Source: Candidatus Woesearchaeota archaeon
Lineage (GTDB): Archaea; Nanobdellota; Nanobdellia; Woesearchaeales; GW2011-AR4
NCBI GenBank assembly: GCA_018303185.1
Contig: JAGVYR010000001.1
Coordinates: forward strand, 8,461 to 72,460
Direction of reading: 5' to 3'
Length of the DNA: 64,000 nt
Each line of letters begins with the position of its first letter. The stretch's first letter is position 1. Both the position numbers and the translations under genes were made by a program. Positions 16,526-40,702 of this stretch are shown here, one piece after another. The notes below the pieces were generated by a model. The model was not told the origin of the DNA, made no database searches, and saw nothing but the letters and a program-made list of their open reading frames with translations.

Positions 16526-16581
16526 ATATAAAGTTTGCGGTTTTAAGTCCTGCTCTCAGATGTTCTTGGCGATATATTAAT

Positions 16582-24517: not shown

Positions 24518-25567
24518 ATGCAAAATCAAAAGAGCGATTTGTTGGATAACGGGCTGGAAGTAGGGCAGGCCAGCATCAAGGTAATCGGGGTAGGCGGTGG
24601 CGGCAACAACATGGTCAACTGGCTCTATAAGAAAGGGGTCAAGGGAGCTGAGATCATAGCCTGCAACTCTGATAAGCAGCATCTCGAGATTACACAGGCC
24701 GACTCAAAGTTCCTTATAGGAAAGCATGTAACTAGGGGCTTGGGATGCGGAGGCTTCCCGCAGAAAGGAGCCGAGGCAGCGCAGGAAAACATGAATGATA
24801 TCAAAGAGCATATTAGAAACTCGGACATAGTATTCGTATGCGCAGGAATGGGCGGCGGCACCGGAACAGGAGCAGCGCCGATAGTTGCATCTGTTGCAAA
24901 GGATGCAGGCGCAATAGTAATCGGCACTGTAACCATGCCCTTCAGCATAGAAAGGGCTCGCGTACATAAGGCAGAATTCGGCCTCGACCAATTAAGGAAA
25001 TACGCAGACACCGTCATAGTGATTGACAACAACAGGCTTGTGAGCATTGCTGGCAATCTTCCTGTGCAGCAGGCATTCGCTGTGGCAAACGAGCTTATAG
25101 CTACAATGATAAGGGGCATTGTTGAGACAATATCGGTCCCATCTTTAGTCAACCTTGACTTCGCTGATGTAAAAGCCATAATGAAGGGAAGCGGCGTAGC
25201 TGCAATCGGCGTCGGCACATCAGACACAACAAACAAGGTTGAAGAAGCAGTCAAAGGCGCACTCAGCAATCCTTTGCTGGACATAAGCTACAAAGGCGCA
25301 ACCGGAGCTTTAATCCACATAGAAGGCGGCCCTGACATGACTCTGGATGAGGTAAGCAGGGCAGGCGAAATGGTCACAGAAAGCCTTGATGAAGACGCAA
25401 ACATCATCTGGGGAGCAAGAGTTTCGGAAAACATGAAGGGAAAGATTACTGTCATGACAATAATAACAGGAGTGACAAGCCCCTGGATAGTTGGAAAGGA
25501 CACAGAGAAGGCTGCAAAGCTTGAAAAAAAGAAAATGGAAAATGAATTCGGCATCGAATTCTTTTGA
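24518..25567 (+). CDS. ftsZ: cell-division GTPase FtsZ (tubulin superfamily)
   Basis: IKVIGVGGGGNNMV, GGGTGTG tubulin signature, 349 aa, GAGGTGA Shine-Dalgarno. Confidence 0.9.
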   Translation: MQNQKSDLLDNGLEVGQASIKVIGVGGGGNNMVNWLYKKGVKGAEIIACNSDKQHLEITQADSKFLIGKHVTRGLGCGGFPQKGAEAAQENMNDIKEHIRNSDIVFVCAGMGGGTGTGAAPIVASVAKDAGAIVIGTVTMPFSIERARVHKAEFGLDQLRKYADTVIVIDNNRLVSIAGNLPVQQAFAVANELIATMIRGIVETISVPSLVNLDFADVKAIMKGSGVAAIGVGTSDTTNKVEEAVKGALSNPLLDISYKGATGALIHIEGGPDMTLDEVSRAGEMVTESLDEDANIIWGARVSENMKGKITVMTIITGVTSPWIVGKDTEKAAKLEKKKMENEFGIEFF

Positions 25568-26307
25568 GGTGCAAAATGGAAAATGACCCTATTATGAAAA
25601 AAGTTGTTGGAAGCATAGTTGAGAGCAATGAAAGGCTTATGAATTCAAGGCAGGAAGTGAGCAAATTCTCAAAAATTGTCCCTGCCCTTATGAAAAAAGG
25701 GCTTGACGAGCTCAATTTATCAATGTTCAGCCCGGAAATAAAGCAGGCAATCCTTACTGCCCTTGGAGAAGAGTACAGGAGAAAAGGCAACCTTAGCGAG
25801 GCTGTAAAGGCATTTGTGCTTGCAGGGGAAAGGTCGAAGCTTAATGATATTGCAGAGGAATACGAGAGGCTTGCCCAGTACGACAACTGCATCGAAGCCT
25901 ACAAGATGGCAGGAAACCATACAAAGCTCATGGAAATGGGCATGAGGTGCCTTAATGACGGCAAATTGGAGCATGCAATAAAGGCCTTCATCGCTGTGGG
26001 AGATGTCGGCAGGCTTATTGAGGTTGGCGACCAGTGCATGGCAAAATTCCGCTTTGACCACGCCCTCGAAATATTCGGCACAATGAAAGACAAAAGGAAG
26101 CTTACAGAGCTCGGCAACAGGTGCGTTGAGGAAAAGCAGTACAAATACGCGCTGCAGGCATTCTCAATAGCTGAGAACAGGGACGGCCTTAACATAATAG
26201 GAGACAGCTGCCTTAGGGAAGAGCACATTTCAATGGCCCTCGAAGCCTACCATCTTGCAAGCAATGAGATGATGGTTCAGTTCATAAGGGAAAACTTCCA
26301 GGATTAA
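25564..26307 (+). CDS. repeat protein (about 38-aa helical repeats), FtsZ-coupled
   Basis: ATGA overlap with the ftsZ stop. There are five or more repeats of the form A.KAF..AG....L.E.G..C. Confidence 0.55.
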   Translation: MRCKMENDPIMKKVVGSIVESNERLMNSRQEVSKFSKIVPALMKKGLDELNLSMFSPEIKQAILTALGEEYRRKGNLSEAVKAFVLAGERSKLNDIAEEYERLAQYDNCIEAYKMAGNHTKLMEMGMRCLNDGKLEHAIKAFIAVGDVGRLIEVGDQCMAKFRFDHALEIFGTMKDKRKLTELGNRCVEEKQYKYALQAFSIAENRDGLNIIGDSCLREEHISMALEAYHLASNEMMVQFIRENFQD

Positions 26308-28570: not shown

Positions 28571-29413
28571 CTAAAAAAACAGCGGCGTGACAAAAACCTC
28601 AAGAAGGGCTGCAAAGAACAGCACGAACACCGCAAGGAAAACCAAATCCAGCGAATCCGTAAGGATGTGCCTAAACTTCCCGCTTCCGAAATCATGCCTT
28701 GATATTGCAACCGATATTATCCCGCCTGCCAGCCCTGCCATGAAATAGGCGAGCATCTCAGGCACTCCATGAATGCTGTACCTCAATAATCCAAGTGAAA
28801 ATGAGGAAAAGTAGTTCAGCCCTATGGTTGAGTGCACGAAATGCCCTATAGCTGCTCCAATAACTGAGGCGTTCCATGTCAGTATGAATATAGCCCCAGT
28901 TCCATAGAAAAACGCGAAAATCAGGGCAAATATCATCACAACAAGGTTATTGAAGAAGATGCTGCCGAATATTCCCACAAGGCTCACTGCATTTCCCGTT
29001 ATGTCAATGCCCTGCACCCTTTCAATCTCCTTTATCTGCACGCTGAAGACATTGAAGGTCACATCCTCGGGCAGGAAAACATACCATATTGAAAATGAAA
29101 CCACAAAACCCATAAAGAGGAACATAAAGAATGAAAGGGCCTTTCCGTGCTCCTTTATCAAAACCGCTTCTTCCTCATAGACTAAATCCTTCTTTTCCTC
29201 TATCTTTATCGCTGTGTACATGAAGGGCGTTGCAGCAAGCACTGTAAGGAATATGGCGACAAGGCTGGCATGCTCGGCAAAGATATAGAGCCCGAGCATT
29301 ATCGCGAGGGAGCTGTAAATCAGCCCTATGAAGAACATCTCCCAGGGCTTTTTCCCTGCCTTGACGGGATTGACAAGAGACTCGAATACCATGCCTTTTC
29401 TTCGGAATAGCAA
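28571..29413 (-). CDS. SpoIIM/DUF95-family membrane protein
   Basis: Five or six TM helices in a DUF95-like arrangement. Confidence 0.55.
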   Translation of the reverse strand: MLFRRKGMVFESLVNPVKAGKKPWEMFFIGLIYSSLAIMLGLYIFAEHASLVAIFLTVLAATPFMYTAIKIEEKKDLVYEEEAVLIKEHGKALSFFMFLFMGFVVSFSIWYVFLPEDVTFNVFSVQIKEIERVQGIDITGNAVSLVGIFGSIFFNNLVVMIFALIFAFFYGTGAIFILTWNASVIGAAIGHFVHSTIGLNYFSSFSLGLLRYSIHGVPEMLAYFMAGLAGGIISVAISRHDFGSGKFRHILTDSLDLVFLAVFVLFFAALLEVFVTPLFF

Positions 29414-29886: not shown

Positions 29887-30672
29887 TCAATAAAACGCCT
29901 TGAATTCTCCGACTTCGAGCCCTGACTTCGTGAACTTCAGCAGGTTTGCCCCGGGCACAATCTCCGTTCCCCTGAGCTTCTTGACAGCAACCGTCCTGTT
30001 GACGTTCTTGGAAGTGTCATTGAGCTGCATCTGTATGACGCCATCGCAGGCAAACTCAGAAACGCCGTCCTTGGTCAGCAATTCCGTCCCCGGTGGAGAA
30101 TCTGTCAGGTATATCGAAGTCGCTCCAAGGTCGTTAACCCTGTTTATGAAGAGGTAAGTGAACTGGGAAACATCCTCAAAAGGCGCATAGCCTGCAACCT
30201 TCAAAACCTTGTCCCTCCCCAAAACTCCTGTAGGATCCGGCTGGTCCTTCAGCGGAAGGCTGAACATCCTTGCGTTTATATTCAATGCAGAAAGGGAATC
30301 CACCACAATCCTCTGCGCCTTTATTTTCTTCGCTGCCCTGGTTATTGTCTCCACAATATTGTAGCCTATATGGTCAATCGGAACCTTAAGGAACTCAAGC
30401 TTTCCTTCCTTCTGAAGCTTTTCAAGGTCCCAGCCGAATCCCTTTCCATAGGTTTTGAGCTTCTCAGGATCGTCTTCGACTGATACAAAAAGCCCGTTCT
30501 CATTGTTTTCAACAGCCCCTCTATACAAAAACTGAAGCGCAAATATTGTCTTGCCGGTTCCGGGCATGCCGCACACAAGGATGCTCTGCCCCCTTATGAA
30601 GCCCCCTCCAACAAGCCCGTCAAAGCCTTTGACCCCGCTTTTCACCCTTTCAATTCCGGAAACTTTTGCCAT
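29887..30672 (-). CDS. KaiC/RecA-like single-domain ATPase (paralog 1)
   Basis: GIERVKSGVKGFDGLVGGG...GMPGTGKT (Walker A), RIVVDSL (Walker B) and the C-terminal ...LEVGEFKAFY. Confidence 0.8.
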   Translation of the reverse strand: MAKVSGIERVKSGVKGFDGLVGGGFIRGQSILVCGMPGTGKTIFALQFLYRGAVENNENGLFVSVEDDPEKLKTYGKGFGWDLEKLQKEGKLEFLKVPIDHIGYNIVETITRAAKKIKAQRIVVDSLSALNINARMFSLPLKDQPDPTGVLGRDKVLKVAGYAPFEDVSQFTYLFINRVNDLGATSIYLTDSPPGTELLTKDGVSEFACDGVIQMQLNDTSKNVNRTVAVKKLRGTEIVPGANLLKFTKSGLEVGEFKAFY

Positions 30673-30721
30673 TTTGATTCTTTACTGAAGGTTATTATTA
30701 AAGTTTTTGATTTGATAAGTT

Positions 30722-30800
30722 GGCGTGCGGCGAGGCTGGGGTCGCGCCCTGCGGGCTGCCGAGCAGGTTTTCGCAGAAAACCGTCGCACCGCCATAAAGC
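30722..30800 (+). repeat. GC-rich structured element R4, copy 1
   Basis: gcgtgcggcgagg...ggggtcgcgccctgcggg...aggttttcgcagaaaacc...gtcgcaccgcc. It is homologous to 51181-51262 and 53741-53832. Confidence 0.5.
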
Positions 30801-30815
30801 TTGGCTCAAGCTCAC

Positions 30816-31514
30816 TTAAAGCACAATAGTATCAGGGAAAACAACCATTCCCTTTTCAGTGATTCTCATCGAGCATATCTTGGATTCGTGCCTCGTGCCC
30901 CTCATCTTGTACACTTCAATGGCCCTGAACCTCAGCCCTTTCGGCTCTCTCTGGTTGTAGAGCAGTATGATTGCATCCGCCATGAATCCCATGACAGTCG
31001 AATGGTGCTTGTCAGGGTCCTGATCTTCCTCTGCGACAACAACAGCAGTGCAGCCCCATTCCTCAATCATGTCAAACAGCGCCACAAGCATCCTTCTCTT
31101 CTCTGCTTCTGTGTCAAAAAGCGCCGTATATGCAGACAAGGAATCTATCACAATCCTCTTTGCCTCAACTTCCTGGATTGCCTTCTCTATTTCCTTGCTC
31201 CTTTCTTTTACTATTTTAGCTATCCTTTCCGGGCTGTACTTCAAAAAAATGAAGCGCCCCTGGCTCTCAAGCTTGTTCAGGTCCCAGCCGAATTTGGACA
31301 TGTGGTCATAAAACCTGTTTTTCCTCTCTTCAAAGGAGATATAGATACCGGTCTCACCGTCAGTTATGCCCTCAACAAGAAACTGCGTCGCGAATATGCT
31401 CTTTCCGCATCCGCCGCCGCCCATTACAAGCACTGCGCTGTTCTTTTCAAAGCCGCCCTCTGTGAGCTTGTCAAGCCCTTTGATGCCTGTTGAAATCCTT
31501 GCTTCGTTGGCCAT
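30816..31514 (-). CDS. KaiC/RecA-like single-domain ATPase (paralog 2, divergent)
   Basis: GIKGLDKLTEGG...GGGGCGKS Walker A, RIVIDSL Walker B. Confidence 0.8.
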   Translation of the reverse strand: MANEARISTGIKGLDKLTEGGFEKNSAVLVMGGGGCGKSIFATQFLVEGITDGETGIYISFEERKNRFYDHMSKFGWDLNKLESQGRFIFLKYSPERIAKIVKERSKEIEKAIQEVEAKRIVIDSLSAYTALFDTEAEKRRMLVALFDMIEEWGCTAVVVAEEDQDPDKHHSTVMGFMADAIILLYNQREPKGLRFRAIEVYKMRGTRHESKICSMRITEKGMVVFPDTIVL

Positions 31515-31532
31515 TTTATCTGTAGAAGGCCA

Positions 31533-32219
31533 TCAGTAGAAGGCCTTGTATTCCTCTATCTCAAGCCCTGCTTTCGATATTTTCAGTATGTTCTGGCCGG
31601 GCGTGATTTCTGTGCCCCTCATCTTCTTTATGGAAAGCGTCCTGCTCACAGTCTTGCTGACATCATTGAGCTGCAGCTGTATGACTCCGTCGCATACAAA
31701 CTCCGACACTCCGTCCTTGGTGAGCTGGTCGCCGCCGCCTGCTGAGGGGCTGTCCGTTATGAAAATGCTTGTCACCCCGAGCTCTTCAAGCACCCCTACA
31801 AAAGAGTACACGAACTGCGTTATGTCCTCGAAAGCCATGTAAATTGATGAAAGCGAATCTACGACAAGCCTTTTTGCGTTCATCCTGGTGACTTGCTCCC
31901 TGACTTTGTCCACAATGTCAAATTTCTTGTCAGTAGGCGCAACATGAAGGAACTGTAGTTTCCCTGCCTTTTCCAGCGCCTCAATGTCTTTCCACCCGAA
32001 TTCAGCCCCGTATTTCCTCAGCTTCCTTGGATGCTCTTCAATGCTCACATAAAGCCCGTTTTCATTGAACTTCTTTGCGCCCATATACAGGAACTGCAGC
32101 CCGAATATTGTCTTTCCGGTCCCGGGAGTGCCGCATATCAGTGTAGAGTGCCCTCTGGGAATGCCTCCTCCGACAAGTTTTTCAAGCCCCTTTATTCCGC
32201 TGTTTATCCTTTCCATCAA
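31533..32219 (-). CDS. KaiC/RecA-like single-domain ATPase (paralog 3)
   Basis: GTPGTGKT, RLVVDSL and the C-terminal ...LEIEEYKAFY. A close paralog of the 29887 gene. Confidence 0.8.
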   Translation of the reverse strand: MMERINSGIKGLEKLVGGGIPRGHSTLICGTPGTGKTIFGLQFLYMGAKKFNENGLYVSIEEHPRKLRKYGAEFGWKDIEALEKAGKLQFLHVAPTDKKFDIVDKVREQVTRMNAKRLVVDSLSSIYMAFEDITQFVYSFVGVLEELGVTSIFITDSPSAGGGDQLTKDGVSEFVCDGVIQLQLNDVSKTVSRTLSIKKMRGTEITPGQNILKISKAGLEIEEYKAFY

Positions 32220-32234
32220 ATCATCCTTTCCATT

Positions 32235-32576
32235 TTAAGATGTCAGCTCATCAAGGAATTTTTCCAGTGACTTTTCCTCCTTCATTACAAACTTAAGGTA
32301 AGGTATTATGCCGATTATCAGCGCGACAAGCCCTACAAGCACCATGATGTTAAGCTGGTTTCTTGTGATAAGGTCGTTGAGCAATCCGACTATTGACACT
32401 ATAAGGAATGCAAAAAAAAGTATTATGCTCCCTCCGAGTATAAGCAGGGATTTTTCCCTCTCAATCTTCATCTTTTCTATCCTTAAAGAAATAATCTGCT
32501 TCTCTGCCTCGCTGAGCTTCCTCTTTGGAATGACGCGAAAGTCCTTTCTCTCAAGAAGCTCCTGATTTTCTTCCAT
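32235..32576 (-). CDS. small membrane protein (two TM helices)
   Basis: The ORF is in the track with a TTG start. I prefer the ATG at 32576 (MEENQ), which is preceded by a GAGGT Shine-Dalgarno and an upstream TATAAATA box. Confidence 0.5.
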   Translation of the reverse strand: MEENQELLERKDFRVIPKRKLSEAEKQIISLRIEKMKIEREKSLLILGGSIILFFAFLIVSIVGLLNDLITRNQLNIMVLVGLVALIIGIIPYLKFVMKEEKSLEKFLDELTS

Positions 32577-32631
32577 TAACAACCTCTTTTTAATTGATTT
32601 TTGAGTATAACGGATATTTATACTTTTGGTA

Positions 32632-34950
32632 TTACTTTTGGCTCATTGCTTTTAAAATTTCCTCTTTTGTCTTCCCTTTAGCCACTTCAGCCCCGATTTT
32701 AGCATCCCACTTCTTCATCCAGTCTGCAAAGTCATTCTTCTGAGCCGTGACGTGCTCCTTGAAAGTGTCGGGGTCCATGTTCTCTATTGCGTCATAAAGC
32801 TCCGTTGTATTCGTAACCATTACCCCGTTCTTGAGCTCCAGAGGGGGAACTTTAGCTGCAGCAGGGCCTCCTGCACTTCCTCCCTCTTTTTTCTTCTCTG
32901 ACTCAAACTTCTTCCTTGCTTCCTGGGCCCTTGCGAACTCTTCCCTGAGCTCTGATTCCGAGACAAGCTTTGTCCTTTTTTGCGGCGGCTCTTTGCCCAG
33001 CTTCTTCCACTGCTCTGCAACCCTTGGCTTCAGCCCGTCAAGGTAGATATCTACCATGTTGAAGCTTCCTGACTTTACCTTGTCAAGGGCCATCTTAAGC
33101 TCCAGCTTCAGGTCAAAGGCATCTATGTTTTCTTTCTCAAGCGCCTCTATTGAGTATTCAAGGTCATCAATCATGTCGTTGTATTTGTTGTAGTTGGAAA
33201 GCTCCTCATCGCTCAGCCTTGCGTGCTCGTGAAAAAGGGGCCTGAATGATATGAAATAAGGATTGCCCTTGTTATAGGCAGCGTTCTGAAGCATTCCTGT
33301 TCCTGTCGCGCTCTTCAGCAGGGACTGAAGCATGTAATCTCCGTATTTGGTCTTTATCCTGTCCAAATCCCCCTGGTCTCTCGTTCTCATCTGGACTTCT
33401 GTGTTTATGTTGGCTTTTGTCTCGCCGATAAAGTCCTTTAATACCTGGGAGATTAGCATTAAACCGACACCCCACTTCCTGAACTCCCTTGCTCCCCTTT
33501 CAATCTGGATGAATCCTGCGCCGGAGCCTCCGAACTTGGGCAGCAGCCTGTGAACCTCATCAAATATGACCATGAGCTTCAATACCGGGCTTTCGGGAAG
33601 GTTTGCGTGGAAAACTTCACGGATAGTATTAGCGACAAGTATGTCTGCATCTTCGGGGTCAAGCTTGTTTATTGTAAAGACGTTTATCTCTCCAGGCTTC
33701 ATGTATCTCTTGATGTCCACTCTTTCCCTAGCGTTGAGTATCTGCCTTACGTTCCCATTAAATGCTCTTGCGTCCCCTTTTTTAAGCCCGAACTTTGGAT
33801 AGAGGCCGAACATCTTCTTGTCAGTATTCTTTCTCAAAAAGCCTGACCACTGCGCCGTCGGGTCAAAAACTATGACTGACACGCCCTTAACAAGCGCCTC
33901 TTCGACAAGCACTTCTGCCGAGACTGTCTTTCCGCCTCCTGTTGAGCCTGCGATAAGCGTGTGGATTGTCAATTGGTCGAGGTCGAAATATGTTTTTTTT
34001 GTGGTTTCCGCAACCATGCCGAGATATGCCGTCCTTGGGCCCGACTTTGGCAGCAGTCCATAGTCTATCTTCATTGTATACCTCTTTTTCTTGGCTTTTT
34101 TCTTGAGATAGACTATGCCGCCTATCGAGCCTATGCCGAACACAATTCCCGCAAGTATGAGCCATCTTACAGGGATTATCCCCAGGAAAACATGGTCCCA
34201 GAAGGGCTCCACAACCTGGAAAGTCCTGCTGGCGCTTGTTTCCAAATCAAGATACTCTGCTGCAACATTGATTACGTAAGTTCCGGGCCTTATGAAGTCG
34301 GGCATGTCAAATTCCTTGACTATGTTGACAGAAGTTGCAAGCTCTACCACTTCTGACTCTTCAAAAAACGCCTTGTCGAACTTGTAGGTGGTGGTTCCAT
34401 CGTCAAGCCTGTCAATGCTGTATTTCATAGTGACATTGTACCTTTCATCAGAAAGCAGGTTCTGCACCCCAACTTTAAAATTGAAGATTTTTCCTATTGC
34501 GGCCTTTTCGGTAATCGGCTCTATCTCTATCAGAAGCGCTTCGACAGGGACAGCAGTGTTGCTTGTTACCGATATATTTATCGGAATTTGCTCATTTATG
34601 CTGCCGGAAATATCCAAAAAGCCGCTTCTGAATGAGGCATTCTCCCCGAATATGGTAAGCTTGACCTGTTCAGTGAGGCCCGGCTGCACATTCAGGCCTG
34701 TCCGGTCCATTGTTGCAATTCTTGATATGTCTCCTATGATGGTGAAGCTGACATCAATATTGCTCTCCCTGCTGTTCGTGATCTTTACTGGGATTTCCAG
34801 AAAGTCACCGCTCTTGACGCGCCTGTTGATTGACTCGGGGGATATGGAATATTGGTCTGACTGCGCCTGCGCAAAGCTGCTGAATGCTATTGCAAAAGCT
34901 AGCAAAATGCACGTCAGTACTGCAGCTTTAGTACGCTTATGGCTTCTCAT
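32632..34950 (-). CDS. membrane-anchored HerA/FtsK/VirB4-superfamily (DUF87-like) P-loop ATPase with an N-terminal extracellular domain
   Basis: Signal peptide, then a roughly 240-aa extracellular beta-rich region, a TM helix (WLILAGIVFGIGSIGGIVYL) and the cytoplasmic ATPase: Walker A GSTGGGKT, VIVFDPTAQW, Walker B MVIFDEVHRL. There is a long C-terminal coiled-coil tail. Confidence 0.7.
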   Translation of the reverse strand: MRSHKRTKAAVLTCILLAFAIAFSSFAQAQSDQYSISPESINRRVKSGDFLEIPVKITNSRESNIDVSFTIIGDISRIATMDRTGLNVQPGLTEQVKLTIFGENASFRSGFLDISGSINEQIPINISVTSNTAVPVEALLIEIEPITEKAAIGKIFNFKVGVQNLLSDERYNVTMKYSIDRLDDGTTTYKFDKAFFEESEVVELATSVNIVKEFDMPDFIRPGTYVINVAAEYLDLETSASRTFQVVEPFWDHVFLGIIPVRWLILAGIVFGIGSIGGIVYLKKKAKKKRYTMKIDYGLLPKSGPRTAYLGMVAETTKKTYFDLDQLTIHTLIAGSTGGGKTVSAEVLVEEALVKGVSVIVFDPTAQWSGFLRKNTDKKMFGLYPKFGLKKGDARAFNGNVRQILNARERVDIKRYMKPGEINVFTINKLDPEDADILVANTIREVFHANLPESPVLKLMVIFDEVHRLLPKFGGSGAGFIQIERGAREFRKWGVGLMLISQVLKDFIGETKANINTEVQMRTRDQGDLDRIKTKYGDYMLQSLLKSATGTGMLQNAAYNKGNPYFISFRPLFHEHARLSDEELSNYNKYNDMIDDLEYSIEALEKENIDAFDLKLELKMALDKVKSGSFNMVDIYLDGLKPRVAEQWKKLGKEPPQKRTKLVSESELREEFARAQEARKKFESEKKKEGGSAGGPAAAKVPPLELKNGVMVTNTTELYDAIENMDPDTFKEHVTAQKNDFADWMKKWDAKIGAEVAKGKTKEEILKAMSQK

Positions 34951-36475
34951 CTTCCGCCTTTTGCCCCACCAGTTTTATCGAATCCTCAATATAGTTGGTA
35001 ACAGCTTCAAGAACCCTGTATTGAGTAAGTATTCCTGCAACTTTATTCTTGTATATGACCGGAAGCCTTCTGTAATTCTTGTCGAGCATTATCTTGTTGG
35101 CCACAAACAGGCTTGTGCTTTGGTCGATTGTCTCTACGGGAGAGTTCATTATGTTCACGGCCTTGATTTTGGAAAATCCTTCCCTGCTTTTGTAAAATTC
35201 TCCCATAATATCCTTGATTGTGATAATGCCCATAAGCTTGCTGTCAGACTCGCTAAACTGCTGGTACACCAGTGCATATCCTTTCTTTGCCCTTGCCATC
35301 TTTCTGGCTATTTCCACAACAGGCTCATCCCTGCTCACTCTCAGTATGTCCCTGTCCATTATATTGCCGACATATGGCTGTCCGACAGGCTCCATCTGCT
35401 CTTTTGAAAACAGCTCGTTGATAAATTTAAGAAGGTCCGTCACTGTGACTATTCCGGCAAGCTTTTCTCCTTCAGCCAGGGGCAGCTTCCTTACTTTCTT
35501 TTTCTGGAGCGTTTGCATTGCCTTCAGCACAGTCCACTCATCAGAGCCGGCAACAAGGGGCGCGCTCATGATGTCCCTTGCTGAGGATTTTTCAGGATTA
35601 TTTTTTAGTATTGCGTTGGGAAGAAGATCGCTTTCTGTTATCATTCCAACAGGCTTCTTTTTGTCCATGACTACAAGGGAATTGAGGTTTTCCTCAAGCA
35701 TCTGTTTCATGACCTGAAGTGCGCGTGCATCTGCATCTGCTGTTTTGACATACCTGGACTTGATAAGGTAGAGTCTTGTTGTATCCAGTGCAACAGTGCT
35801 TTTCAGGAGCCCGTAGTTTGACAGGTTTGCCCTGTCTTTTCTCCTCCTATAAAGCCTGAAAGACAGGAAAGCTGCCAGGGCAGCAGCGAAGTAGAAATGC
35901 AGGTTTCTGGCAAAATGCCATGATATCTTTCTGGCATTGTCAAAAAATGTTCCCTGCCTTATGTCAATAAGGATGGTATTGATTATTGTCCCGCTTGACA
36001 GCTCGCTTTCAGGTCTCATGACCGTCAACGGCACTACTTCCACAGAGCCTCCCGGAGATGAAGGAACATCCGCAGAGGAAAGCCTTGGCTGCGTCATCAG
36101 CCTTATTGTGCTGTTTGGGGCTGCCCTTATCTGGCTCTGGGTAAAAAGGTAGTAGCCTTCAAGCATTGGGTTGCCGAATCGCATTGCCTCTTCTCTGGAG
36201 AGTGTTTTTGTGCGTGCTGCCCTTATTATCCCAAGGCTGTCTGTCCATTTTGCAGTAACCATTTCTCCGGAAACAGGATGGCCTCTTTGATCCACTATCC
36301 TCCCGTAAAGTCCTGTGGGGGGATTGCCGCTTGCACTGCATTCTCCGGTGCAGTTTTCAAGCACTATCTCGCTGCAGTCATCATTCTGGCAGGTAAGCCT
36401 TTGCGCACTTGTGCCTGCGGCTATCAGAGTGAATAAAACTATCGCAGACACTATAAAATTCCTGATTCTGTTCAC
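34937..36475 (-). CDS. membrane protein with extracellular domain and four cytoplasmic CBS domains
   Basis: Signal peptide, a Cys-rich extracellular part, a TM helix (FYFAAALAAFLSF) and then tandem CBS pairs (repeated hydrophobic-xDIM/DLL patterns). It overlaps the downstream ATPase gene by 14 nt. Confidence 0.65.
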   Translation of the reverse strand: MNRIRNFIVSAIVLFTLIAAGTSAQRLTCQNDDCSEIVLENCTGECSASGNPPTGLYGRIVDQRGHPVSGEMVTAKWTDSLGIIRAARTKTLSREEAMRFGNPMLEGYYLFTQSQIRAAPNSTIRLMTQPRLSSADVPSSPGGSVEVVPLTVMRPESELSSGTIINTILIDIRQGTFFDNARKISWHFARNLHFYFAAALAAFLSFRLYRRRKDRANLSNYGLLKSTVALDTTRLYLIKSRYVKTADADARALQVMKQMLEENLNSLVVMDKKKPVGMITESDLLPNAILKNNPEKSSARDIMSAPLVAGSDEWTVLKAMQTLQKKKVRKLPLAEGEKLAGIVTVTDLLKFINELFSKEQMEPVGQPYVGNIMDRDILRVSRDEPVVEIARKMARAKKGYALVYQQFSESDSKLMGIITIKDIMGEFYKSREGFSKIKAVNIMNSPVETIDQSTSLFVANKIMLDKNYRRLPVIYKNKVAGILTQYRVLEAVTNYIEDSIKLVGQKAEDEKP

Positions 36476-36482
36476 CTCTTTT

Positions 36483-39400
36483 TTAGTGCAAATTGCTTAT
36501 GTTGCTTATTTTACTATGCAGCTCCATGCATTTCTTTGACACTTCAGCCTTATGCTCCCTCGGGATAATGCTGTATAGTGATTGTATCTTCTTGTATATT
36601 GCGAATGACGCCTTTTTGTCGTTTGCCATTATGCTGCTTTCCGCTTCATCAGCCAGCTTATGCACATAAAGCATGTTGAGCCTGTGCGCCATGTCAGTCA
36701 CTGCCTGCTTTACTCTTTCTCTTTTCTCTTTCTCAAGCGCCCTGAACTTTTCTGTTATCTGCCTGTATTTCAGGGATGCGTTTTCATAATTCATCGCGGC
36801 AGCATCCGCATTCGCCTCTTCAATTATTTTTTTAAGCTCCTTCAGCTCCTTGCCGCCAAGAAGATGCGCAAATTTCTCGATGCCGCCCATTGAATACACG
36901 AAATAAAACCCTGCCAGCAGCACGATTGCAGCTATCTCGAGTATCAGCCTTATGTCGGCAGCATTTATGAAGCTTGTCGCCGCGCTTTCAAGTATCGAGA
37001 GCCCTATAAAAATCCCTTTGCTCTCAATCTTAAGGCTTTTGTCAAGAAGCATTGACTTTATGCTTTCAGAGTCATCAAGGCTTATTGATTTTTTAATAAG
37101 GTATGAGTATTCTTCAATCTTGTTCAGGTCTATCCGGACTATCGGGTCATATTGCACGACTTCATGGTCAAAAAGCAGCTCTGTCTCATTCAGGTCCTTT
37201 GCGATTTCTTTAGGAATCACCTCGTAGAAGACATAGTCCGATATGTTTGAATTCACCTTGACTATCTTATGGATCAGGGTATAAGTTCTCCTGTCTCCTG
37301 AGATATACTCAAAGTTCACAATCTTTGCCTTTGTTGTGACAGTGATTGCCGATTGCAAATTGAGGTTATGGCTTATAAGCTGCTCTTTTTCTCTCCTGGA
37401 GAACTTAAGGTTTGTCTGGTTTAGCAGCACACTGACCCCTTCCGCAATTTCTGGCCTGCCGGGATAGTTTACAAATTCCGTCGACTCGGCAACCTCAATC
37501 ACTCTTGGAGTTGTTTTTCTTATTTCCTCAACTCTATCCAGTATTTTCTGCGTTTCCTTTTCAAGCTCACTTTCATTCAGCTTTCTCCACTTGAGGCTGT
37601 GCAGGTCTCTATTTGCCCTGTCAAGGCTTGTAATGCTTCTCTCGAGCATCTCCTTGAGCCTGATCGCGTCAGCAGCTTCCTTCTCCTTTCCTGTAAGGCT
37701 TCCTGAATCCTCGATGGCAGACCTTATCTGCTGGACAAGGCTTTCTGTATCCCGGTCGCTCTGGTCAAGGTCGACAGAAAGCTCGTTTATTACCGCTTCT
37801 TCATTTACTACAAGGCTGTAAGTCTGGCTCGCGTTCAGGTTTCCGCTCCTGTCAATGCAGTCTACCTTCCATCTGTAGTCGCCATTGGGCATGTTAGCAA
37901 CCTTAAAATTGTTTGATGAGCCTGTAAGCACAGAGCTGTTCGATGCCTTGACCGAGGAGAATGGGAGGCTGTAGGGTTCATAATAAAGCCTGCATGTCAT
38001 GTAGCCGCCATCGGCTGCGGCATAAGTGAAGGTTACATTTCTCGAGCTGATTATTGTGTCATTCTGCGGGCTTATGAGATAGGCGATGGGGGCTTTTTCA
38101 TCCTTAAGAGTGAGATTGAAGCTCACTTCCTGATTATTGGCATTTATTGATATGTCCTTGGATAGCTTATTGTATCCTCTCTTTGCGATTTCTATATCAT
38201 GGCTGCCCTTATACACTGTAAATGATGCCTGCCCGCTGCTGCTCGTGTTCTTTTCTTCGTCATCCACCGATACTATGGCATTCTGTATGGCTGTTCCGGT
38301 GCCATTCTGCCTGACTGTCACGGTAAAGTTGAACATCTTTCTGACGCTTATAGTTTCTATGTCTGTCTGGTTCCAGAAAGAGTCTTTCACAGTCAAATTT
38401 ACATTATAAGTCCCGTTGAACTGGAACAGCTTTGTGGGATTTGATTCTGTGCTGTCTATCGTTCCGTCATTCTCAAAATCCCATTTGTACGTTACAGTTC
38501 CAGTATTTCCCGACACTGTTGCCGAAAAAGTGACTGCTTTCCCTTCATCTATTGAAGTTCTGTTGGCATTTATTGTAACGCTTAAAGGATTGCTTTGCGG
38601 CGCAAGCACTTCAAACTGCCTTGTTATTGTCTCCGTAACATTAATGTAATGCATGTCCGCTGTTATAGTATAATTTCCGGCATTGCTTGTGTTTTCTATC
38701 TTCCTTATCTCCGATATGGGAAATCCTGAAAACAAAGGCTGGAATAAATGCCTGTACGTGACAGCATTATTTTTCCTTACGGTCATGTTTACAGTGGAAT
38801 TTACTCTGGCTATGACTGTCGCATAAACACTGTCAGTCAGGTTGTATTGAAGCTGGCCTGTTGAGGCATTGAAAGGCACACACGAGCTGCAGCTTCCTCC
38901 GCAGTCTATTCCCGTCTCCTGCCCGTTCTGCCTTGCATCCGAGCAGCTGCCTATCTCTGTAAAGTTGAATTTGTAGAATTCCTGCCTCTCGTTTCCGTTG
39001 AAATCCCTTGCTTTTATAGTAAGGTTGTTTTTTCCTTCCATTACCGGTAATGCAATTTCTTTTTTTCTTCCTGTCCCGGCATCTTCAAATGCTGTAAATC
39101 CGTTATTGTTTGCATTATAGCTTATGTTCCCGTATTCGCTCAGAGTTATTTTTACAGGCAGTGAGAAAGTTATCTCTGACTGCTCGCTGTTGTTGGTTAT
39201 ATTCAGCGATATTGAAGGCGCTGCCGAATCCGCAACAGTAAAAGTATGCTCAAGCCTTCCGCCGCTGTAATTTATCCCGATTGTGTGCTGCCCGTTGGCA
39301 AGGACTCCATGCGGCAACGAGCCGTTCAGTAAAGATAAAAATGATGTATTTTCTCCCAAAGCAATTTTTTCCCCCGCATCCAGCGTATAATTCGCGTCAA

Positions 39401-40013
39401 TCGTCTCATTGGCCGAGAAATTGAGATAAATATTTTCCCCTGATGAAAGATTGCTGCTGTTATCCGGGCTTGTTATCGTTATTATCGGATTTCCCGATGA
39501 CATTATTGAAAAGCCCGAGCCTCCAAAGCTCCCTTGGAATTGTGCGCTCAGGTTCTTCCACTCGGAATAATAAGTATTGGTGTAAGGGTTCTCTCCCAGG
39601 CTGTATTCAACATAGACTGTCTGGGCAAGCACCCTGTTATTTTCAGTTGCCCCATAAGTCCCATATGACAGGTATAAAGGCTCGTTCCAGTCCGGCCTTG
39701 TCGGCACCATGGACATGAAGTTGCAGCACGCCTCGCTTCCGTAGCAGGCAAAAGTCGAGTCTCCTGTATTTTCTGACTGGACATTCCATCTCGTGCAGAG
39801 ATTTGATTCGTTCAGTCCCAGCTCAAACAGCGAATTTTCAACAGTGAAGTCAATTGCCCCGGTATCCGATTCAATCCCGTTATTGTCAAAATCGTATGCG
39901 GGATTGCTTCCGTATTGAAGGTTGATTAAAACGCGCTCTGTAGTCTGCGCCAAAGCGGCTGTGCTTATTATAAGAATAAACAGCAGCAGCATTGTTTTGA
40001 GGAAGGAGCTCAT
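36483..40013 (-). CDS. giant surface (glyco)protein with PKD domain, C-terminal TM anchor and cytoplasmic coiled-coil tail
   Basis: 1176 aa with a signal peptide and dozens of N-x-S/T sequons. The PKD signature is TVTYKWDFENDGTIDSTESNPTKLFQFNGTYNVNLTVKD. The TM helix lies near residue 1010, followed by about 150 aa of cytoplasmic coiled coil. Confidence 0.75.
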   Translation of the reverse strand: MSSFLKTMLLLFILIISTAALAQTTERVLINLQYGSNPAYDFDNNGIESDTGAIDFTVENSLFELGLNESNLCTRWNVQSENTGDSTFACYGSEACCNFMSMVPTRPDWNEPLYLSYGTYGATENNRVLAQTVYVEYSLGENPYTNTYYSEWKNLSAQFQGSFGGSGFSIMSSGNPIITITSPDNSSNLSSGENIYLNFSANETIDANYTLDAGEKIALGENTSFLSLLNGSLPHGVLANGQHTIGINYSGGRLEHTFTVADSAAPSISLNITNNSEQSEITFSLPVKITLSEYGNISYNANNNGFTAFEDAGTGRKKEIALPVMEGKNNLTIKARDFNGNERQEFYKFNFTEIGSCSDARQNGQETGIDCGGSCSSCVPFNASTGQLQYNLTDSVYATVIARVNSTVNMTVRKNNAVTYRHLFQPLFSGFPISEIRKIENTSNAGNYTITADMHYINVTETITRQFEVLAPQSNPLSVTINANRTSIDEGKAVTFSATVSGNTGTVTYKWDFENDGTIDSTESNPTKLFQFNGTYNVNLTVKDSFWNQTDIETISVRKMFNFTVTVRQNGTGTAIQNAIVSVDDEEKNTSSSGQASFTVYKGSHDIEIAKRGYNKLSKDISINANNQEVSFNLTLKDEKAPIAYLISPQNDTIISSRNVTFTYAAADGGYMTCRLYYEPYSLPFSSVKASNSSVLTGSSNNFKVANMPNGDYRWKVDCIDRSGNLNASQTYSLVVNEEAVINELSVDLDQSDRDTESLVQQIRSAIEDSGSLTGKEKEAADAIRLKEMLERSITSLDRANRDLHSLKWRKLNESELEKETQKILDRVEEIRKTTPRVIEVAESTEFVNYPGRPEIAEGVSVLLNQTNLKFSRREKEQLISHNLNLQSAITVTTKAKIVNFEYISGDRRTYTLIHKIVKVNSNISDYVFYEVIPKEIAKDLNETELLFDHEVVQYDPIVRIDLNKIEEYSYLIKKSISLDDSESIKSMLLDKSLKIESKGIFIGLSILESAATSFINAADIRLILEIAAIVLLAGFYFVYSMGGIEKFAHLLGGKELKELKKIIEEANADAAAMNYENASLKYRQITEKFRALEKEKRERVKQAVTDMAHRLNMLYVHKLADEAESSIMANDKKASFAIYKKIQSLYSIIPREHKAEVSKKCMELHSKISNISNLH

Positions 40014-40294
40014 TTCAGCATCCCTCCCTTCATCAGCTGCTCTTTTATCGCTTCCAGCTCTTTGTTGATCTGCTCCCTTACTTTTTCCTCAGAAGTTTTC
40101 CTTGTCTCTTTCTCAATATCCTGCCTTAATTTGTTTAACTGGAATAATTCCGGGCTTTGCGCCTTTGCCCATTCCTTCCTTACAATGCTTCTCAATTGCT
40201 CGCTTAAATCAAGAAAATGCTGCTCCTTTGCAAGCTGCTTCAATTCATCCAGAAGGGATTTCGGCATCCTGATGCTGACTAAAACATCAGTCAT
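40010..40294 (-). CDS. ribbon-helix-helix (RHH/CopG-Arc) family DNA-binding protein
   Basis: VSIRMPKSLLDELKQLAKEQ is an RHH beta-strand plus helix. The probable start is MTDV, an internal Met of the 40315 ORF. It overlaps the giant gene by 4 nt. Confidence 0.5.
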   Translation of the reverse strand: MTDVLVSIRMPKSLLDELKQLAKEQHFLDLSEQLRSIVRKEWAKAQSPELFQLNKLRQDIEKETRKTSEEKVREQINKELEAIKEQLMKGGMLK

Positions 40295-40436
40295 CCTTTC
40301 CCTGCCTCCTGACATAGTTTCTTGAGAATTCCCTGATTGCTTCGCTTCTTGACTTGTAGATGCCTTTCTTCACCAAAGAATCCAGCCACTCAACTATTTC
40401 CTTCGGCAGCCGCACATTGAAAATCTCTACATCCAT
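40287..40436 (-). CDS. small RHH/CopG-like DNA-binding protein, 49 aa
   Basis: I translated it by hand: MDVEIFNVRLPKEIVEWLDSLVKKGIYKSRSEAIREFSRNYVRRQGKDD. It is not in the ORF track. Its stop overlaps the next gene start (gATGActga). Confidence 0.45.
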   Translation of the reverse strand: MDVEIFNVRLPKEIVEWLDSLVKKGIYKSRSEAIREFSRNYVRRQGKDD

Positions 40437-40702
40437 TGTATTCTATCTGTATTACACTAGTGTTTTGTCTAGTACTTTGCCAGATAGTATATAAATCTTT
40501 TGCATTTCCACACTAATAGACGGATTTAGTACACTGGTTTGTGGGTGTGAGTTGACTGTATGGGTTTTGTATTGTATGTGTAATTGACTTATGTTACATA
40601 AATTGATTCACAAAGACTGATAGACTGTATCCGGCATTAGAACATTACTTATTAGTAGTAACAATTAGTAAATTTTATATACTCTTGCTCTAATCTAAGC
40701 CT

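Follow-up and report, generated by a model that had tools for sequence, protein, structure and literature searches.

A nine-gene co-directional cluster on a Woesearchaeota contig

We analyzed a gene cluster on contig JAGVYR010000001.1 of a Candidatus Woesearchaeota archaeon (assembly GCA_018303185.1), within a stretch of 64,000 nt that spans positions 8,461-72,460 of the forward strand and is referred to here as the window. Nine co-directional open reading frames (ORFs) fill positions 29887-40436 on the minus strand (Table 1). From the head of the cluster, they encode two small ribbon-helix-helix (RHH) proteins (RHHa and RHHb), a large surface protein (SURF), a membrane-anchored CBS-domain protein, a membrane ATPase, a protein with two transmembrane (TM) helices (TM2), and three KaiC-like ATPases (KaiC-1, KaiC-2, and KaiC-3). 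The central protein is the ATPase, which is predicted from its sequence to be a small member of the SPEARE family within the FtsK/HerA/VirB4 superfamily.

An earlier note on this DNA had proposed nine genes on one strand with short overlaps, read them as a single operon, and suggested domain searches for each protein. The ORF positions confirm the layout and the overlaps, and recurrence of the gene order in relatives (see below) supports one conserved co-directional unit. Pfam and NCBIfam searches recovered the expected domains: two RHH domains, PKD and CarboxypepD_reg domains, four CBS stretches, a DUF87/HerA-like P-loop ATPase, and three KaiC domains. The three large proteins also share the type-I topology that had been proposed for them, with hydropathy profiles that place a signal peptide, an ectodomain, one TM helix, and a cytoplasmic module in SURF; in the CBS protein the second TM segment (residues ~192-210, followed by RRRKDR) is weaker in hydropathy but plausible. 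RHHb probably starts at 40294, the start called on a 99.8%-identical ENA contig (94 aa), and with this start its gene overlaps RHHa by 8 nt (40287-40294). RHHb and SURF overlap by 4 nt (40010-40013), and the CBS and ATPase genes by 14 nt (34937-34950). The other intergenic gaps measure 7, 49, 15, 18, and 143 nt, with the 143-nt gap preceding KaiC-3.

Table 1. Genes, protein regions, and candidate regulatory elements of the cluster (nucleotide positions refer to the window; residue numbers are given in the description).
Feature	Position	Strand	Description
Distal array	40557-40583	minus	Direct (A/T)TACA repeats, 3-4 copies, lying beyond the TATA box as seen from RHHa; candidate RHH operator
TATA-box-like element TTTATATA	40488-40495	minus	~55 nt upstream of the RHHa ATG; read from the sequence
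Proximal pair	40437-40452	minus	Two AATACA repeats with 11-nt spacing, directly before the RHHa start codon; candidate RHH operator
RHHa	40287-40436	minus	49-aa ribbon-helix-helix DNA-binding protein
RHHb	40010-40315 (likely start 40294)	minus	RHH domain and C-terminal helix, 94-101 aa
SURF	36483-40013	minus	Type-I surface protein, 1,176 aa
SURF domains			Signal peptide; variable N-terminus; PKD, CarboxypepD_reg, and Ig-like domains; extracellular helical stalk and alpha/beta domain; TM 1014-1045; 130-aa TPR-like cytoplasmic tail
CBS protein	34937-36475	minus	Membrane-anchored 4xCBS protein, 512 aa
ATPase	32632-34950	minus	Predicted SPEARE-family membrane motor ATPase, 772 aa
ATPase, N-terminal part			Signal/TM 3-27; two PapD/ASH-like beta-sandwich ectodomains 34-247; TM 261-288
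ATPase, cytoplasmic part			P-loop core 307-570 (FtsK/HerA/VirB4 superfamily); Walker A GSTGGGKT 335-342; Walker B DE 464-465
ATPase, C-terminal part			Coiled coil 581-693; DUF5752-like end domain 704-770
TM2	32235-32582	minus	115 aa, two adjacent TM helices
KaiC-1	31533-32219	minus	KaiC-like single-domain ATPase; Pfam KaiC E 1.6e-58
KaiC-2	30816-31514	minus	KaiC-like single-domain ATPase, divergent paralogue; Pfam KaiC E 1.4e-61
KaiC-3	29887-30672	minus	KaiC-like single-domain ATPase; Pfam KaiC E 1.9e-49, two stretches

The 143-nt spacer before KaiC-3 (30673-30815) contains a perfect 7-bp hairpin (GGTTTTC TGC GAAAACC, 30766-30782), a G+C-rich stretch, and a TATA-like TTTAATAATA box at ~30693-30702, ~25 nt before the KaiC-3 ATG. 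These features suggest that transcription ends or is attenuated after KaiC-2 and that KaiC-3 has its own, nearly leaderless transcript. Scans for sigma-70 promoters and intrinsic terminators, which are not suited to archaea, gave chance-level results.

The ATPase is a predicted small member of the SPEARE family

The predicted topology of the ATPase, with a signal segment, an ectodomain, a single TM helix, and a cytoplasmic part spanning residues 289-772, is backed by hydropathy and by an AlphaFold model. Across 23 orthologues the Walker A and B motifs and many arginines are invariant, conservation extends over residues 25-772, and the ectodomain is as conserved as the catalytic core. The closest folds are the DNA translocases HerA, DptH, and FtsK. 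The HerA/FtsK/VirB4-type assignment of the earlier note holds at the superfamily level; structure comparison places HerA and DptH above VirB4, and the protein is not a canonical VirB4/TraC within an integrated element, the outcome that had been named as fatal to the idea of a new machine.

SPEARE proteins have been described as mostly extracytoplasmic, with a TM segment towards the C-terminus and a most conserved intracellular part that was likened to type III restriction enzymes; relatives were reported in Woesearchaeota, Aenigmarchaeota, Micrarchaeota, and Altiarchaeales, and short versions of 655 and 717 aa, the latter from Lake Tyrrell, lack protease, laminin-G, and adhesion domains (Hamm et al. 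2019, PMC6642349). In 2023 the cytoplasmic region was re-annotated as a VirB4/TraG-like ATPase followed by a coiled coil, with no nuclease, and a type IV secretion system (T4SS)-like effector “straw” was proposed for the giant proteins of nanohaloarchaea (PMC10266531). The family is hypothesized to act as an adhesion or translocation device.

The window ATPase is 39% identical to the 717-aa protein P0309 over residues 36-641 (E 4e-145), and its cytoplasmic part matches the same protein with E 3.3e-111. P0309 lies on Lake Tyrrell record LTJ07As871_J07ABscf094182 and matches the published Lake Tyrrell SPEARE, by length and source alone. The cytoplasmic domain is also 52% identical to that of a 4,079-aa Candidatus Nanosalina protein. 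An exhaustive search with residues 285-772 returned 381 clusters (50% identity) at E ≤ 1e-30; 49 of the best 150 representatives exceed 2,000 aa, the longest reaching 6,253 aa, and in the long representatives whose coordinates were read the ATPase domain lies near the C-terminus. Giant relatives with Peptidase_S8 or NEW3 domains exist, among them the 4,192-aa P0233, which carries an N-terminal subtilase. Overall, the window ATPase has the conserved intracellular ATPase region of the family and, by its predicted topology, the same order of extracytoplasmic part, TM helix, and cytoplasmic conserved domain, with the ectodomain here forming the smaller part. We hold this anatomy and the family assignment with high confidence.

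P0309 matches Pfam ResIII at 37.7 bits, above threshold, which probably explains the original “restriction” reading of SPEARE; the ResIII match of the window ATPase is sub-threshold and confined to the P-loop region. Pfam and NCBIfam searches found no nuclease domain in the window ATPase or in related members, in agreement with the re-annotation (PMC10266531).

The 99.8%-identical ENA contig (ERZ27254845 k141_1022102) has TGA (at ~16075 of locus L081) where the window has GGA at 33939. This codon specifies Gly338 within the Walker A motif GSTGGGKT, and the change splits the gene into calls of 337 and 426 aa. It represents either a nonsense variant in the population or an assembly error; recoding of TGA as glycine was rejected, as TGA terminates RHHa in the same operon.

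A four-gene core underlies the conserved gene order

In a scan of one genome per species, at least 563 places encode a relative of the ATPase, and we took 80 loci with 10-kb flanks for comparison. The close homologues all come from Woesearchaeota/Nanoarchaeota-type DPANN assemblies. The order RHHa-RHHb-SURF-ATPase on one strand is present in 45 of the 52 loci that have at least 5 kb upstream. Across loci, the RHHa/RHHb and RHHb/SURF junctions mostly overlap by 4-14 nt, and about half of the SURF/ATPase junctions overlap, the rest showing gaps of up to ~100 nt and a few larger ones. The nine-gene order, whole or for the most part, recurs at 45-70% protein identity in three loci (L001, L083, and L088), and parts of it are found in six others (L002, L003, L006, L031, L082, and L087). 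The homologues are thus co-localized rather than scattered in related genomes, as the earlier note had anticipated. The nine-gene arrangement is far beyond chance; it is a sublineage-conserved unit built on a much more widespread four-gene core.

ATPases at these loci fall into two size classes of ~770 aa, as in the window, and ~1,300 aa. The long class has additional ectodomain sequence (CarboxypepD_reg) and, at the C-terminus, a further DUF5752-like or TPR module. The two classes stand in tandem in L014, L015, and L018, and share one locus in L031 and L083, where TM2 and the KaiC trio separate them; given this co-location, the short form looks like a lineage-specific duplicate. After the long ATPase come an adaptor, X, often with a DUF5752-like N-terminus, and CC360, a coiled-coil protein of ~350 aa; these loci often continue with a winged helix-turn-helix (wHTH)-like protein and a giant Ig-repeat protein (1,700-2,700 aa). 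Two loci without the RHH pair, one from Altiarchaeales (E 4.7e-50) and one of nanohaloarchaeal type (E 4.8e-28), likewise have CC360 after the ATPase. Neither CC360 nor the f9 protein has a Pfam family. A search of the window for homologues of CC360, X, f9, f13, and f25 found nothing apart from the ATPase’s own C-terminus.

Several modules recur among the cytoplasmic parts of these proteins. The ATPase C-terminus, X, and small tail-anchored proteins encoded close to the ATPase all carry DUF5752-like modules with the motif HVxxxKNDFxxW. Together with the sharing of DUF835, CBS, and SURF-tail modules described below, this pattern suggests a cytoplasmic assembly of shared interaction modules. Clusters of three small DUF5752-like proteins (HVNxxKNDFSxW) lie near the ATPase at 11622-13012 of L004 and 3805-5207 of L005; two of the three proteins in each cluster have a C-terminal TM anchor, and the same motif ends the window ATPase (residues ~733-745).

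Giant surface proteins are common around ATPase loci. In the closely related locus L082, a 6,414-aa gene call with CARDB and Big_13 domains begins at 16556, 8 kb downstream of the ATPase. Family f13 (~555 aa, secreted, with a C-terminal TM anchor) stands beside the short-class ATPase in 11 loci, including L007, L009, L011, L012, L034, L068, and L079, and is a possible further envelope component or S-layer candidate.

SURF is a single-pass surface protein with a variable N-terminus

SURF contains 40 N-X-S/T sequons. Its orthology extends from about residue 370 to 1170, that is, from the PKD domain through the stalk and TM helix into the cytoplasmic tail, across ~60 loci, and the N-terminal third is variable. 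The tail had been described as a coiled coil; the structure model instead shows a TPR-like helical repeat on the cytoplasmic side and places the coiled coil outside the cell. The ATPase paralogue P0193 carries this tail module at its C-terminus (domain E 1.6e-6), and a hidden Markov model (HMM) search finds it in four X adaptor proteins (E 1e-10 to 3e-5), with no matches in reversed controls; an hhalign comparison of the SURF tail with the heterogeneous X alignment gave no match. We also considered SURF as a detached copy of giant SPEARE ectodomains and rejected this idea, as only CarboxypepD_reg-type repeats and the cytoplasmic tail match.

Helically phased TACA repeats precede the RHH pair

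RHHa has weak NCBIfam matches to the CdrS, NikR, and ParD RHH models (E 9e-7 to 2e-4, at most 29 bits), and a PDB sequence search finds the N-terminal RHH domain of NikR (E 7e-4). RHHb matches Pfam RHH_1 over residues 13-47 with an E-value of 0.003, below the curated cut-off. RHHa orthologues head the operon in ~55 of the 80 loci, and RHHb is kept directly between RHHa and SURF.

Upstream of RHHa, the window carries a distal array, a TATA-box-like element, and a proximal pair (Table 1), and L083 shows the same distal-TATA-proximal layout. Most loci have two to four direct repeats with an (A/T)TACA core upstream of RHHa, the last copy often abutting the start codon, and a TTTATA(A/T)A element is likewise found upstream in many related loci. 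Pairs of TACR 10-11 nt apart within 80 nt upstream of RHHa occur in 37 of 53 loci, compared with a mean of 0.64 loci in shuffled sequences (maximum 3), a mean of 0.65 in random 80-nt windows from the same loci, and one locus on the opposite strand. Repeat spacings peak at 11 nt (68 pairs), 22 nt (36), and 33 nt (12), and the density of TACA arrays, which are strand-specific, is ~135 times the locus background. WTACA-N6-WTACA occurs four times in the window against 0.29 expected, with three of the four in the RHHa upstream region. TACA arrays are absent from loci without the RHH pair (L099 and L100). In the simplest reading, the array would be the operator through which RHHa and RHHb autoregulate their own operon, with binding predicted from the repeats. 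A loading role like that of ParR/parC may be considered by analogy, and gains a little from a second RHH pair in L083.

This second, divergent pair (54 and 66 aa; 15262-15623 of L083) lies directly before, and overlaps, the long ATPase paralogue. The repeats upstream of it differ, consisting of TAGTATAT units and a duplicated TTAATTAATTAGTTATA in place of TACA arrays. Within the window, the sole TACA array outside the RHHa upstream region lies at 36572-36597 (minus strand), where three ATACA units 10-11 nt apart stand inside the 3′ end of the SURF gene, ~100 nt before the CBS gene. The array encodes the conserved tail motif IYKKIQSLYS, so that the repeats may simply follow from the protein sequence, or they may serve as an internal operator.

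Accessory genes place CBS and KaiC-type modules beside the ATPase

The CBS protein (Pfam CBS E 3.5e-43) has four CBS stretches that form two Bateman modules, and a Cys-rich ectodomain. Its gene stands between SURF and the short ATPase in the window and in L001, L082, L083, and L088, and is absent from this position in L006, L031, and L087. The X adaptor of L021 ends in a fused CBS pair, indicating that CBS modules have been recruited more than once.

TM2 has no Pfam family, and its charged N- and C-terminal tails are conserved. Scanning metagenomes with the TM2 alignment yielded 14 loci: the ATPase lies upstream in all nine with upstream DNA, KaiC-1 lies downstream in all 13 with downstream DNA, and KaiC-2 and KaiC-3 come next wherever the contig goes on. 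KaiC-3 is kept after KaiC-2 in L002, L003, L006, L031, L083, L087, L088, and L094.

The three KaiC proteins score 168-208 bits against a Pfam KaiC cut-off of 26.6. KaiC-1 and KaiC-3 had been proposed as close paralogues and KaiC-2 as divergent, and pairwise identities bear this out (59% for KaiC-1 and KaiC-3, 30% for KaiC-2 and KaiC-1); KaiC-3 has a 33-residue insertion. By alignment, Walker A and B are intact in all three, the EE motif is intact in KaiC-1, and E-D replaces E-E in KaiC-3. All three are single-domain proteins of 228-261 aa, as expected of archaeal single-domain KaiC-like ATPases. A circadian KaiC clock was rejected: only single-domain proteins are present, NCBIfam circadian KaiC matches reach 130-165 bits against a cut-off of 408, and there is no KaiA or KaiB among the window genes examined.

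Several members of the ATPase family also carry DUF835 at the C-terminus (P0199, E 2.9e-21; P0233; and P0238). DUF835 has been catalogued as an inactivated KaiC-like domain (PMC5847659), and these fusions provide an independent tie between KaiC-type modules and the motor.

The cluster lies in a chromosomal neighborhood

The head position of the RHH genes had been taken as typical of mobile or defense-like modules. The surroundings point elsewhere. In the window, the cluster is accompanied by genes for FtsZ, glycogen synthase, two DEAD-box helicases, MsrB, a P-type ATPase, and a SpoIIM-family membrane protein; the flanks of related loci contain adenylate kinase, TruD, NifS, glycogen synthase, and a GalT-like gene, in partial synteny. 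The GC content of the cluster is not anomalous, tRNA and Rfam scans of the window found nothing, and there are no integrase, relaxase, or capsid genes among the flanking genes examined. PADLOC reported no system: the ATPase gave only generic mad8, HerA, and Cas3 P-loop matches, two KaiC proteins matched mad8, and the other six proteins matched nothing. With the ATPase family encoded in several hundred places, the cluster is a chromosomal operon and not a mobile or defense module.

Three neighbors of the cluster deserve mention in their own right. The FtsZ gene and, directly after it, a gene for a TPR protein (24518-26307, plus strand) lie ~4 kb beyond the KaiC-3 end of the cluster. The SpoIIM-family gene (28571-29413, minus strand) is directly downstream of KaiC-3; SpoIIM homologues lie within 10 kb of the ATPase in L012, L013, L053, L068, L069, and L079 and adjoin it in the Altiarchaeales locus L100, a modest enrichment. 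A PocR-GAF-GGDEF protein (46159-47709, minus strand; GGDEF E 1.5e-43), also present on the ENA contig, has an intact GGEEF motif. Diguanylate cyclases are unusual in archaea.

A proposed motor complex for host contact

We propose that this chromosomal operon encodes a regulated, membrane-embedded SPEARE-family motor complex, driven by ATP, for host contact, and we assign this reading a probability of roughly 60%. In this model, the ATPase would assemble beneath the membrane into a hexameric ring like those of its structural relatives. The ATPase ectodomains and the conserved SURF stalk would pair as a glycosylated surface structure, with the variable SURF tip binding a partner (host) cell. At the contact site, ATP hydrolysis would move a macromolecule, DNA or protein, across the symbiont envelope or would remodel the envelope. 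By analogy with the ArlH-ArlI pair, the KaiC trio may be a switch that docks on the motor. The CBS protein may couple activity to adenine-nucleotide status, and RHHa and RHHb may repress their own operon by coating the TACA arrays. The “envelope-spanning machine” of the earlier note is a plausible reading of these components. Translocation as the specific function at host contact is more tentative, and we judge it somewhat short of an even chance.

Several observations weigh against the proposed complex. The function of SPEARE proteins is itself hypothesized, and host association is an assumption based on the lineage of the organism. A polytopic channel protein is missing from the operon, in which the ATPase and SURF have one TM helix per copy and TM2 has two, and no substrate, pilin, relaxase, or effector is identifiable. 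The ATPase was modeled as a monomer, with moderate confidence (pLDDT 76, pTM 0.51). The RHH pair and SURF are restricted to Woesearchaeales-type loci, and the CBS and TM2-KaiC genes are accessory, since they are confined to one sublineage; moreover, KaiC-3 probably has its own promoter. An hhalign comparison of the window’s three KaiC proteins with the DUF835 segment, using thin profiles, was not significant, so that the link between DUF835 and KaiC is that drawn by Pfam and the literature.

A bolder version of the model has the ATPase, SURF, and TM2 forming a new trans-envelope conduit that moves DNA or protein between a DPANN symbiont and its host, gated by the KaiC trio and the CBS nucleotide sensor, with the RHH pair and the 11-bp iterons as autoregulator and DNA-loading site. 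A hexamer of ATPase, SURF, and TM2 would supply ~24 TM helices, about as many as an FtsK hexamer. We regard this version as unlikely; if true, it would amount to a lineage-wide host-interaction machine with a composition unrelated to T4SS, Ced, and the type VII secretion system (T7SS).

Alternative explanations

Two alternatives keep a transport motor and change what it serves. In one, the locus is a T4SS-like injector in which the ATPase acts like VirB4/VirD4 and the surface proteins form the straw that pushes effectors into the host, as explicitly proposed for the nanohaloarchaeal proteins (PMC10266531). The ATPase does give weak TrwB_AAD_bind, TraD, and TraC matches, but all NCBIfam T4SS matches are confined to the P-loop and fall more than 300 bits below their cut-offs, neither the VirB4 N-terminal domain (PF03135) nor a T4CP all-alpha domain was detected, and HerA and DptH are the better-scoring folds. 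Among the genes examined in the window and related loci, and among the conserved neighbors in the 80 genomic loci, there are no VirB2, VirB3, VirB6, or VirB8-like genes and no relaxase, nor were effectors identifiable, and we consider the injector unlikely as well. The other alternative is an RHH-loaded DNA pump, a membrane translocase like FtsK, SpoIIIE, or TraB acting in segregation at division or in DNA uptake, with RHHa, RHHb, and the 11-bp iterons working like ParR/parC or like the RHH accessories of conjugative coupling proteins. This would suit the fold of the ATPase, the direct-repeat arrays flanking the promoter, the second RHH pair before the L083 paralogue, the proximity of the FtsZ and SpoIIM-family genes, and the conserved coiled-coil partner. 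The promoter-flanking layout resembles plasmid R1 parC, which is bound by the RHH protein ParR. A purely internal role nonetheless sits poorly with family members whose ectodomains run to thousands of residues and carry adhesion domains; the RHH pair and arrays are missing from loci of Altiarchaeales and of nanohaloarchaeal type in which the ATPase and the coiled-coil protein are retained; the ATPase has no DNA-binding domain such as the FtsK gamma wHTH; and arrays at the operon’s own promoter are more simply explained by autoregulation. We rate the pump as quite unlikely.

The remaining alternatives dispense with transport at a host contact. SURF could be an S-layer-like or sheath glycoprotein that the ATPase and its partners anchor, organize, or turn over, serving envelope biogenesis or maintenance. 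Its many sequons, its C-terminal anchor, and its single copy per operon would fit, as would the other secreted, C-terminally anchored proteins nearby (f13 and the giant Ig-repeat proteins); the strong conservation of the ATPase ectodomain suggests a conserved self partner. Against this, both the N-terminal third of SURF, which is variable, and the giant adhesin-like ectodomains of ATPase paralogues look outward-facing and fast-evolving, and we know of no S-layer system that uses an FtsK/HerA-type ATPase; this explanation appears very unlikely. RHH genes often head toxin-antitoxin and defense modules, and HerA-like ATPases occur in several defense systems, so that a mobile-element or anti-phage module with RHH repressors, or a restriction-type nuclease as in the original SPEARE annotation, has also to be weighed. 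The weak PADLOC mad8 and HerA matches, and ResIII matches that are sub-threshold here and above the cut-off in relatives, speak for it; yet the PADLOC matches are confined to the P-loop core, with the KaiC proteins matching the same model, and the locus is near-universal and single in its lineage. The housekeeping flanks in partial synteny, the normal GC content, the lack of tRNA and, among the flanking genes examined, of an integrase, and the nuclease-free domain content already contradict this explanation, which we consider extremely improbable.

Significance and relation to published work

For the DPANN archaea, a large radiation of tiny and mostly uncultured symbionts, SPEARE proteins are the leading candidates for a device that attaches to hosts and exchanges material with them. 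They have so far been treated as single giant proteins with disputed domains. The locus described here is a compact, dissected form in which motor, adhesin-like partner, regulators, and sensors are separate genes. Proteins of 772 and 1,176 aa are far easier to express, model, and image than proteins of 6,000-9,000 aa, and the locus offers testable handles in the operator-like array, the ATPase-TM2-KaiC module with the iKaiC fusions, the recurrent CBS modules, and the coiled-coil partner.

The earlier note did not recognize the cluster as any described secretion, pilus, Ced, or conjugation locus. This was only half right: the ATPase is assigned to a published family, and as that family was described in 2019 and re-annotated in 2023, the central protein is not categorically new. 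Our literature search returned no relevant report on DPANN or Woesearchaeota loci of this kind with HerA-, DUF87-, FtsK-, or DUF5752-type proteins. Absent from the literature searched are the Woesearchaeota operon picture, the separate 1,176-aa SURF protein, the RHH/TACA element, the linkage of TM2 to three KaiC genes, the CBS accretions, the ATPase-DUF835 fusions, and a coiled-coil partner conserved as far as Altiarchaeales.

Comparison with known systems

A predicted archaeal secretion system (arCOG01314/arCOG02884; Makarova et al. 2015) was rejected as a match, as it has MoxR-type ATPases and different membrane proteins. HerA proper was likewise rejected, with NCBIfam HerA scores of 36 and 30 bits against cut-offs of 800 and 970. 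Compared with HerA and DptH, the ATPase lacks a HAS-barrel in its model and has only ~45 residues between the TM helix and Walker A; the window system is membrane-anchored with ectodomains and has no partner of the NurA, Sir2, DUF4297, or Dpt type. For NurA, this negative covers the genes examined in the window and in related loci. The FtsK/SpoIIIE arrangement of four N-terminal TM helices, an alpha/beta motor, and a gamma wHTH was not found in the window ATPase.

VirB4/VirD4 and the Ced/Ted systems resemble the locus in the superfamily of their ATPases, in having a membrane-associated motor, and in a role proposed at contacts between cells. The locus differs from them in lacking the VirB4 N-domain, a CedA/VirB6-like polytopic protein, pilin genes, and a relaxase. 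The one match to the Ced/Ted DNA import machinery is a weak one to the CedD P-loop (E 3.6e-8, 32.5 bits against a cut-off of 600), and TM2 has no family match.

With ParR/parC, CopG, the NikR N-domain, and CdrS, the head of the operon shares small RHH proteins encoded beside tandem direct repeats of helical period that flank their own promoter. Unlike ParR/parC, the locus has no ParM or ParA partner; the CdrS, NikR, and ParD matches cover the RHH fold only, and the binding is predicted.

In the archaellum, the KaiC-like ArlH docks on the hexameric motor ATPase ArlI, and by analogy only, the cluster resembles this pair in encoding KaiC-like ATPases with a membrane-associated motor that would be hexameric. 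The window KaiC proteins match ArlH with E 1e-10 to 1e-14, far below the ArlH cut-off of 215 bits, and the systems differ in that the motor here belongs to the FtsK/HerA superfamily rather than to the secretion ATPase/PilB type, and in having three KaiC paralogues rather than one.

The SPEARE family is the closest known system. The window ATPase differs from its giant members in having two Ig-like (beta-sandwich) ectodomains within 772 aa rather than an ectodomain of thousands of residues, with no serine protease, laminin-G, or toxin-like region, and the “restriction endonuclease” of the original name is not present. The adhesin-like part is here a separate gene, SURF, which is translationally coupled and has its own TM helix and cytoplasmic tail, and the operon includes the RHH pair with its TACA arrays, the CBS protein, TM2, and three KaiC proteins, none of which is mentioned in the two SPEARE studies (PMC6642349, PMC10266531). 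Nevertheless, the window ATPase shares with the family a signal peptide, an Ig-like ectodomain, a single TM helix, an FtsK/HerA/VirB4-type cytoplasmic ATPase, and a coiled coil, and its relatives show the published lineage spread across Woesearchaeota, Aenigmarchaeota, Altiarchaeales, and Nanohaloarchaea.

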